Assembly (NCBI RefSeq): GCF_003018115.1
Contig: NZ_CP027457.1
Origin: Escherichia coli
GTDB lineage: Bacteria; Pseudomonadota; Gammaproteobacteria; Enterobacterales; Enterobacteriaceae
Strand: one strand, 5' to 3'
DNA: 64,000 nt
The notes beneath the pieces were generated by a model that worked only from the letters and a program-made list of their open reading frames with translations, did no database searches and was not told the origin of the DNA. Position numbers and translations under genes: made by a program. This document shows positions 36,523-37,434 of this stretch, piece after piece; the stretch's first letter is position 1, and every line of letters starts with the position of its first letter.

Positions 36523-37434
36523 TCATACTGGTAACGCTAGTTGCTCTTTTTTAAACGCCTCAATGGTCGATTTATATTTCTCGCAAATCTTTTCTTTGGT
36601 AATATCACTATCTGCGGCCAGATTCGCACTTACTATCGCATCCACTTGTTCGGCTAATTCGACTTGTTGGCAACCTGCATTAACCAGAAAATTATAAATA
36701 AGAGAGTAATCTTCATCCTCCAAAACAACAGAGGAACCATTACGAAAACTTTCATCCCCTCCATAGATTTTAAGCGCAAAGCCCAAAGATTCTATGACTA
36801 TGGCAAAATTATCATCAATTATTTTTTCGTAAATATACCATCCATCGCATTCTTTAATTCCACCTCCTGGTATTTGGAGTTCAAATTTACCCCGTTTTAA
36901 TTTGCTTACTATATCCTCCAATAAGGCATAACCTAAACACACGTCACCAATCGCCTGGTGAATATAACCTTTAATCCTTTTCGGTATGTCAGACTGTTTT
37001 TTCTGTAGAATATCCCAGGCATACAATCGTCTGTTTTGTTCTAACGGAAATTCACGGTTTTTGAAATCCATGAATGAGTTATATTCATTTATTGTTATGG
37101 GTATTTCTTCGTATTCAAATCCACTACCTCGCAATGTCATTGTATATTCGGCACCGTTATCTTTAAGACTGAAACTGATAAGAAACTTATCCATGGCGTT
37201 AACAGTTTCATTTTTTGATGAAAGCACCTGATAACTACTTTTATCAATCTGAGTTGCGCAACGAAAGAACTCCCGCAAAGTTAACAGGCTATCATAATTC
37301 GAAATCCAATCTTTTTTCTTAAATGCATGATGGATGTTGTTAAAAAGATTGTTTGAATGTGTTTTTGTATACGAAGACTTTACAAATAACTCCACCGCAC
37401 CAATAAAATTATTGTGTCTGATCCTGGGTAACAT
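36523..37434 (-). CDS. ytfI: uncharacterised protein YtfI (AT-rich gene)
   Basis: 303-aa ORF with a markedly AT-rich coding sequence; no recognisable domain; name from synteny. Confidence 0.65.
   Translation of the reverse strand: MLPRIRHNNFIGAVELFVKSSYTKTHSNNLFNNIHHAFKKKDWISNYDSLLTLREFFRCATQIDKSSYQVLSSKNETVNAMDKFLISFSLKDNGAEYTMTLRGSGFEYEEIPITINEYNSFMDFKNREFPLEQNRRLYAWDILQKKQSDIPKRIKGYIHQAIGDVCLGYALLEDIVSKLKRGKFELQIPGGGIKECDGWYIYEKIIDDNFAIVIESLGFALKIYGGDESFRNGSSVVLEDEDYSLIYNFLVNAGCQQVELAEQVDAIVSANLAADSDITKEKICEKYKSTIEAFKKEQLALPV

Follow-up and report, generated by a model that had tools for sequence, protein, structure and literature searches.

The ytfI gene of Escherichia coli, a genus-restricted coding gene on a probably old AT-rich insertion at the ytfJ/cysQ junction

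In a 64-kb stretch of Escherichia coli DNA (the window, to which all positions refer unless stated otherwise), we have analysed ytfI, a gene located on the minus strand at 36523..37434, with an ATG start and a product of 303 aa according to both the list of open reading frames (ORFs) and the RefSeq annotation. We consider it very probable that ytfI is an Escherichia-restricted coding gene, carried on a self-contained AT-rich cassette that was inserted once, and long ago, at the 11-nt overlap of ytfJ and cysQ. The identity of the gene, its AT-richness, its strain-specific insertion and its binding by H-NS are already known. The present analysis adds the precise limits of the cassette, the state of the site before the insertion, an estimate of when the insertion took place, the proof of coding with its two-part constraint, and the orphan status of the protein on a very large scale.

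RefSeq labels the ORF 'protein YtfI', between ytfJ and cysQ, in strain SWHEFF_58, which is 100% identical to the window. Over 303 residues, the window protein shares 98.3% amino-acid identity with YtfI of K-12 (b4215; WP_000937655.1), encoded at the same locus between the same flanks; near-identity and position both indicate that it is the same gene. The first-pass annotation, made from the sequence of the window, had described a 303-aa ORF. This ORF exists, but its length is peculiar to the window allele, which is 9 codons shorter than the 312-aa K-12 form because a single base gives TGA at K-12 TTA. The same annotation had placed the gene between convergent core genes, and ytfI is indeed flanked by ytfJ (35879..36433, plus strand, YtfJ_HI0045 family) and cysQ (37646..38386, minus strand), which converge, cysQ being upstream of ytfI and co-directional with it.

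The borders of the cassette are given by natural strains that lack it. When the window is compared by BLAST with the empty-site genome of UPEC-455U/190220 (L001), the stretches 35300-36423 and 37646-39000 join directly in the latter, except for 2 bases, and the variable cassette therefore corresponds to 36424..37645, that is, 1,222 bp with a GC content of 34%. Of the 5,426 complete E. coli genomes surveyed, 1,622 (~30%) carry the cassette, each time as one chromosomal copy at this locus, and these carriers include K-12 and O157:H7. In ~70% of these genomes, the flanks match and the 1.2 kb are missing, an empty-type site that was not seen in K-12-derived strains. At the E. coli empty site, YtfJ is a 185-aa protein and the final 11 nt of its gene are shared with the end of cysQ, which converges on it. 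The orthologous site of E. fergusonii, E. marmotae and Salmonella enterica, which have no ytfI, has the same 185-aa YtfJ and an intact 11-nt cysQ overlap, and the 185-aa YtfJ is predominant among the listed orthologues of Citrobacter, Enterobacter, Raoultella, Lelliottia and Trabulsiella. As the outgroups share this overlap architecture, the empty site is the ancestral one.

The sequence of the junctions points in the same direction. The left junction (36415..36433, plus strand), delimited by comparison of ytfI-bearing and empty loci, is a rewritten ytfJ 3' end. In all the ytfI-bearing loci that were read, i.e. those of E. coli and of the divergent L006 and L010 types described below, ytfJ ends ...CAAAAG...AAATAA (LLQKLLK-stop, 184 aa), whereas in all empty sites it ends CATAAATTAATTAATAAATAG or its orthologue (LLHKL(I/L)(N/S)(K/R)-stop, 185 aa). 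The right junction (37646..37656, minus strand) is made of the cysQ stop and last codons (TTAGTAAATAG), which form the 11-nt ytfJ overlap in the empty site. The E. coli empty haplotype thus ends ...CTGCTGCATAAATTAATTAATAAATAG, as the outgroups do, while ytfI-bearing loci end ...CAAAAGTTGCTCAAATAA and L010 ends ...CAAAAGCTACTTAAATAA. Because its tail matches that of the outgroups, unlike the ytfI-linked tail, the empty haplotype is not a deletion derivative of the ytfI allele.

The reverse history, in which ytfI would be ancestral and the empty sites would be deletions, could be thought of, since secondary losses do occur: in ETEC1738 (L011), a deletion mediated by the insertion sequence (IS) IS1 took ytfI and the ytfJ 3' end and left 159 bp of the cassette. 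Moreover, the cassette could in principle be excised through the short, similar AT-rich sequences that lie on either side of it. Such a history is nevertheless highly improbable, because Salmonella, E. fergusonii and E. marmotae share the 11-nt overlap of the E. coli empty site, the 185-aa YtfJ predominates, and several bases of the ytfJ tail distinguish the empty E. coli haplotype from the ytfI-linked one, the empty haplotype agreeing with the outgroups. The comparison of the loci therefore supports the view that foreign-looking DNA was inserted, the direction of the change being a gain. Between the E. coli haplotypes with and without the cassette, ytfJ is 98.7% and cysQ 99.3% identical, and recombination would homogenise the flanks right to the junctions.

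A few observations were made in passing on the locus and its surroundings. In MSB1_4I, IS1A is inserted within the cassette. In the empty-site genome L001, both ytfJ (580-1137) and cpdB (2057-2481) are annotated as pseudogenes with internal stops. Finally, in the cpdB gene of the window (38567-40519), synonymous divergence (dS) from K-12 reaches 0.17 over the first 144 codons, compared with 0.03-0.04 for cysQ/ytfJ, an excess which points to the existence, beside the cassette, of a recombination boundary or of divergent haplotypes of cpdB.

The composition of the cassette sets it apart from its surroundings. A strong AT-richness of the ORF and its flanks had been noted at first pass, together with a proposal of horizontal acquisition. 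The GC content is 35.6% for the ytfI ORF and 34.4% for the stretch 36450-37650, compared with 51.3% for the whole window. Segments of 912 bp with a GC content this low represent 0.5% of all such segments, and every one of them is located at ytfI. Among the 44 long ORFs of the window, ytfI is the lowest in GC content (z = -6.6) and in GC content at third codon positions (GC3; 0.32 for a mean of 0.59, z = -4.1), and the third lowest in leave-one-out codon-adaptation index (0.579 compared with 0.691, z = -2.0). Both base composition and codon usage are thus well outside the range of the neighbouring genes. The AT-richness is therefore borne out, and the locus combines two properties of xenogeneic DNA, i.e. 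composition and codon usage distant from those of the host and absence at the orthologous site with an intact ancestral junction. It is from the composition and the ancestral empty site, which both support the earlier proposal, that we infer a horizontal origin.

The window holds a second low-GC patch (~38-40% GC over 48551-50350, within the region 47197-50262). There, IS609 (tnpB 47197-48405, tnpA 48413-48844) splits a TetR-family pseudogene beside yjfZ (49468-50262, DUF2686), which has a GC content of 42.8% and the lowest codon index in the window.

The age of the insertion can be approached through divergent alleles. A first one, of 77% amino-acid identity to the window protein (L006-L008), lies between flanks 96-97% identical to those of the window, and a second one, of 69% identity (L004, L005 and L010), lies between flanks 89-93% identical, with the same junctions in both cases. 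The expected place of ytfJ, after ytfI, is taken in L004 and L005 by a transposase gene (DUF772/DDE_Tnp_1). L010 (NZ_JAATUR010000006.1, strain SCPM-O-B-8794) is labelled E. coli; its flanks are 87-91% identical to those of E. marmotae, and its lineage is as distant from E. coli as E. marmotae, yet distinct from E. marmotae, so that it probably represents a cryptic Escherichia clade. When the window is compared with L010, dS (Nei-Gojobori) is 0.70 for ytfI, 0.67 for cysQ and 0.56 for ytfJ; when it is compared with L006, dS is 0.36 for ytfI and 0.11-0.27 for the flanks. As the synonymous divergence of ytfI tracks that of its flanks, the gene and the DNA around it have diverged together. The most economical interpretation is that the cassette was inserted only once, at about the time when E. 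coli and the cryptic lineage separated, and has long coexisted with the empty haplotype since then.

A recent, strain-specific horizontal acquisition by K-12-like lineages would explain why ytfI is absent from ~70% of E. coli, among which SE11 and SE15, and why its composition has not drifted toward that of the host. This scenario is very unlikely and already largely refuted, as the same cassette and junctions are found in phylogroup-diverse strains (K-12, O157:H7) and in lineages with flanks of 96% and of 89-90% identity, and as synonymous divergence follows the flanks. On this comparative evidence, the acquisition is old, and not a recent strain-specific event.

Five proteins (P0021, P0023, P0027, P0028 and P0031) were considered as further allele classes and rejected, as they correspond to C-to-T-converted (bisulfite-type) assemblies or to frameshifted ORFs. 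The Logan assemblies SRR11109009, SRR12931389 and SRR12931385 (L024-L026), with protein P0023, show residue changes from P to F/L, H to Y, A to V and T to I. Because these coded changes fit a genome-wide C-to-T conversion, the three assemblies look like bisulfite-type libraries assembled as native, which seed false 'divergent homologues' in protein databases.

The comparison of the alleles also shows that ytfI is a genuine coding gene under purifying selection. Its frame is open over ~300 codons in all allele classes, at up to 22% nucleotide divergence, and none of the length differences breaks the frame: L010 has a deletion of 2 codons, and KKQSDIP is present twice in strain 51243816-SK1A (L018:1573-2532) through a tandem duplication of 21 nt. 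With this composition, 303 codons would stay open by chance with a probability of ~1e-11, and the other five frames hold 12-38 stops. Over the whole gene, the ratio of nonsynonymous to synonymous divergence (dN/dS, or omega) is 0.23 in the comparison with L010 (bootstrap 95% confidence interval 0.16-0.35) and 0.34 in that with L006 (0.22-0.52). Purifying selection acts strongly on the first 150 residues and hardly at all from there to residue ~240: omega is 0.14 in the N-terminal half and 0.56-1.15 over residues ~150-243, with confidence intervals spanning 1. The latter region contains two hypervariable patches (GDVCLGYALLEDIVS and IYEKIIDDNF in the window allele), with invariant blocks between them. 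In the genome pairs compared, dN is 10-25 times as high for ytfI as for cysQ, ytfJ and cpdB.

One could suppose instead that the ORF is non-functional, a chance or decaying frame in AT-rich junk silenced by H-NS. Such a view would be in line with the lack of homologue and domain and the poor structure prediction (see below), with the frequent truncated variants and the C-terminal omega near 1, and with the lack of a knockout phenotype in the papers found to mention ytfI. It is however quite unlikely, given a frame of ~300 codons kept open across 22% nucleotide divergence with in-frame indels only, an omega of 0.23-0.34 with confidence intervals excluding 1, and the values for the N-terminal half and for chance occurrence given above. 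A 64-aa antisense ORF (37334-37528, plus strand), with a strongly hydrophobic stretch (LLCLILGNIWLPYFIWLFYVAIKYLII), overlaps the start of ytfI. It is probably a by-product of the AT-rich sequence, as AT-rich DNA yields such ORFs randomly.

This coding gene is confined to a single genus. A word-indexed search of 5.8 billion proteins and a profile search of 1.84 billion representatives both found YtfI in Escherichia/Shigella only, with at least 65% identity. Among 100,044 species genomes searched with two N-terminal peptide patterns, only the L010 genome and one contig of a Collinsella sp. metagenome-assembled genome (MAG) were found. The latter contig (L009, JAIJJM010000759.1; 1.5 kb) carries a 97% identical ytfI and the ends of ytfJ and cysQ, and is E. 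coli sequence mis-binned into the Collinsella MAG. A tblastn search of phage records found nothing, and the plasmid matches of ytfI obtained by tblastn were discarded as mislabelled chromosomes.

Family searches are equally negative. The best Pfam-A match is LisH, with 10.4 bits for a cut-off of 21.6, NCBIfam gives no match, PHROGs gives phrog_3250 only, with sub-threshold or very short matches, and the profile search of PDB sequences gives only noise at E ~ 1 (nitrogenase). The first-pass annotation had seen no recognisable motif in the protein, in agreement with these profile and structure searches, in which no Pfam, NCBIfam or PDB family, and no domain of housekeeping or other characterised type, was found. 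YtfI has a mass of 34.8 kDa, an isoelectric point of 5.6 and no hydrophobic segment long enough to span a membrane. AlphaFold, run with a shallow alignment, predicts the structure with low confidence (54.7 over the whole protein, 66.8 over residues 146-303), as N-terminal helices followed by a small beta region, a long helix, an antiparallel meander of five strands and helices at the C-terminus. YtfI may thus be a soluble cytoplasmic alpha/beta protein without catalytic signature.

It could be asked whether YtfI is Cas6-like or binds RNA in some other way, or whether it provides anti-phage defence as the product of a single gene, since the PADLOC Cas6b model (PDLC02103) matches residues 112-152 with E = 3e-4 in all six alleles compared, and since a variable, single, fast-evolving gene on an AT-rich islet is typical of defence genes. 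However, the match covers 41 of the 240 profile positions (84-124; 17% coverage; 18.6 bits), and the six hits are not independent because the matched block is nearly invariant among the alleles. Neither the Pfam Cas6 families, nor PDB sequences, nor a fold search gives support to it, there is no repeat array in 36300-37800, and the annotated neighbours are core metabolic genes. The two marks of a Cas6 or Cas6b protein, a match over most of the profile and adjacent CRISPR or cas genes, are thus lacking, as is a significant full-length match to a defence model of PADLOC-DB 2.0. The likeness to Cas6b is limited to a 41-residue local profile match, in a protein without CRISPR context, and we regard identities of this kind as unlikely.

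The cassette as a whole is organised as a self-contained unit. Upstream of ytfI, an AT-rich spacer of 211 bp and 27.5% GC (37435..37645, minus strand) is 87-88% conserved between divergent alleles, above the 78-85% of the ORF. By consensus match alone, it holds a sigma-70-like TTGATA-17-GATATT element with a TG extension at 37504-37476; shuffled sequence contains promoter-like matches at least as often as the region does. Directly after the cysQ stop, the cassette supplies an inverted repeat able to form a hairpin (37601..37643, minus strand; -21.4 kcal/mol, z = -5.8). None of 200 shuffles is as stable, and the core of the hairpin, ~34 nt, is the same in the window and in the 69%-identity allele. 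In the ancestral state, without the cassette hairpin, cysQ ran into ytfJ; in ytfI-positive strains, this hairpin probably serves as terminator of cysQ, even if the U-run behind it is weak. Downstream of the stop codon of ytfI lies a second hairpin, TTCCCCTATC / GATAGGGGAA (36465..36495, minus strand), with a fully complementary stem (10/10); the 71-nt stretch containing it has a folding energy of -23.6 kcal/mol (z = -4.6). It is likely the intrinsic terminator of ytfI, because it is followed by a U-run, UUAUUUUU, on the ytfI strand.

The cassette contains only one ORF with coding support, and an Rfam scan found no RNA family inside it. No integrase, transposase, IS, transfer RNA (tRNA) gene or long terminal direct or inverted repeat was found in it, and it thus lacks the recombinase, the tRNA or attachment site and the terminal repeats of a mobile element or genomic island. 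The two junctions both still carry AT-rich sequence similar to the ancestral overlap, and show some likeness to each other, between TTAATAAATAG on the cysQ side and TCAAATAA or TTAAATAA on the ytfJ side. The likeness was considered as a target-site duplication, and is too short and AT-rich to be called as such; it may reflect a diverged 8-11-bp target duplication, or selection preserving both stop codons. Just outside the cassette, in the cysQ-cpdB intergenic region, lies a full-length Rfam match to the small RNA ES239 (RF02756; 38453-38575, minus strand; 157 bits, E = 6e-32).

The ytfJ/cysQ junction is occupied by a different single-gene cassette in E. albertii (L013:3556-5059; L003:2497-4000), of 32.7% GC and on the opposite strand. 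Its cargo, WP_001340718.1, is a protein of 385 aa that includes a short region of pentapeptide repeats; among 5.8 billion proteins, its homologues at E <= 1e-5 all belong to one 90%-identity cluster. A relationship between the cargo and YtfI was considered and rejected, as their comparison shows the proteins to be unrelated. The E. albertii cassette thus resembles that of ytfI in its junction, in its single AT-rich gene and in its confinement to a single cluster, and differs from it in its unrelated protein, in its strand and in its restriction to E. albertii, including two genomes labelled E. coli. One of these, SCPM-O-B-9504 (L003, NZ_CP144930.1), has cysQ/ytfJ/paeA flanks 98.7-99.8% identical to those of E. 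albertii and ~87% to those of E. coli, and looks mislabelled for this reason; the other, SCPM-O-B-7615 (NZ_CP144926.1), has an identical E. albertii-type cassette. YtfJ variants of unusual length, used as a pointer to other cargos, revealed nothing but one more empty site and a frameshifted ytfI.

Pentapeptide repeats are known from some type III effectors (EspX, PipB). One might therefore propose that YtfI is a secreted effector, for instance a type III substrate, and that the E. albertii cargo is then an EspX-like pentapeptide effector. The AT-rich, H-NS-type character of the cargo, and the N-terminus of YtfI, rich in Ser/Thr/Asn with few acidic residues, would agree with this, yet we hold the proposal to be most improbable. 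A broader speculation starts from the fact that the same 11-nt overlap holds AT-rich orphan cassettes of two kinds, unrelated to each other. The ytfJ/cysQ overlap could be a recurrent landing site for AT-rich orphan cassettes of a single gene, complete from promoter to terminator and devoid of mobility genes, which would arrive by an unrecognised route, with ytfI in E. coli and a cryptic clade and the pentapeptide protein in E. albertii; YtfI would be a conflict protein, with its specificity surface in the hypervariable C-terminal meander, and balancing selection would have maintained the polymorphism from a time preceding the separation of the species. Taken as a whole, this seems improbable to us.

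Previous work gives some insight into the state of the locus. In a study of H-NS binding by chromatin affinity precipitation followed by sequencing (ChAP-seq), ytfI is a worked example of a K-12-specific H-NS-bound insert (Higashi et al., 2016; PMC4720273, S10 Fig): its presence causes an H-NS signal over cpdB, cysQ, ytfJ and ytfK in K-12, SE11 and SE15 have neither ytfI nor the H-NS signal, and H-NS-bound genes show elevated dN (PMC4720273). The raised dN of ytfI fits the latter finding. Considering the H-NS binding of the K-12 cassette, the working state of the locus could be one of xenogeneic silencing. Apart from this, ytfI is among 23 genes raising resistance to hypochlorous acid in an overexpression screen of the ASKA collection, where it was called uncharacterised (PMC8228696). 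It also figures among the strongest 'disputed' sigma-32 targets in chromatin immunoprecipitation on microarrays (ChIP-chip), afterwards argued to be a false positive (PMC3870955, PMC2996942). None of the papers found to mention ytfI is a functional study.

All these elements can be assembled in the following scenario. A self-contained unit, made of a hairpin, an AT-rich promoter region, an ORF and a terminator hairpin, would have entered the 11-nt ytfJ/cysQ overlap once. The cassette would then have segregated against the ancestral empty haplotype, to be present now in ~30% of E. coli, and would be silenced by H-NS, as suggested by the literature on K-12. The conserved N-terminal half of YtfI might carry a core activity, and the fast-changing C-terminal beta-meander, itself known from prediction, might be a partner- or target-recognition surface. 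As to the role of the protein, the likeliest would be a dispensable, conditionally expressed accessory function in a genetic conflict, for instance with a phage or a competitor, a tentative idea which we find rather doubtful.

Several points weigh against this picture. Concerning the insertion, no donor, integrase, IS or tRNA accounts for the arrival of the cassette, the GC3 of ytfI is still 32% despite its long residence, and an ancient transfer between lineages by flanking homologous recombination would look identical to a single old insertion. Concerning silencing, H-NS occupancy of the cassette has been published for K-12 only. Concerning the role of YtfI, the case for a conflict function is made from a pattern, i.e. 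presence/absence, fast evolution and a variable patch, and we have graded it low because a local omega near 1 equally fits relaxed constraint. Furthermore, the PADLOC defence models match nothing past the weak 41-residue hit, and many truncated forms of ytfI are found in databases, which suggests that the gene is often lost or broken.

The locus would also offer a clean minimal example of xenogeneic silencing, with one gene, exact borders and an ancestral empty allele in natural strains. ytfI is one of the uncharacterised genes that make up the 'y-ome' of the best-studied bacterium, and the findings that it is coding under selection, confined to Escherichia and polymorphic over the whole life of the species narrow which experiments merit doing. 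Beyond these points, ytfI is an ordinary accessory gene, the main facts of which had been published before.

When compared with known systems, the ytfI cassette is unlike recent islands, as it consists of a single gene without mobility function, is old and has co-diverged with its flanks. It is closer to the H-NS-silenced strain-specific segments described previously (PMC4720273), which are likewise AT-rich, absent elsewhere, and of higher dN than unbound core genes. Like the orphan genes of enterobacteria, which are short, AT-rich, fast-evolving and poorly predicted by AlphaFold, ytfI has no homologue beyond one genus; it differs from most of them in being longer (303-312 aa) and in showing clear purifying selection in its N-terminal half.

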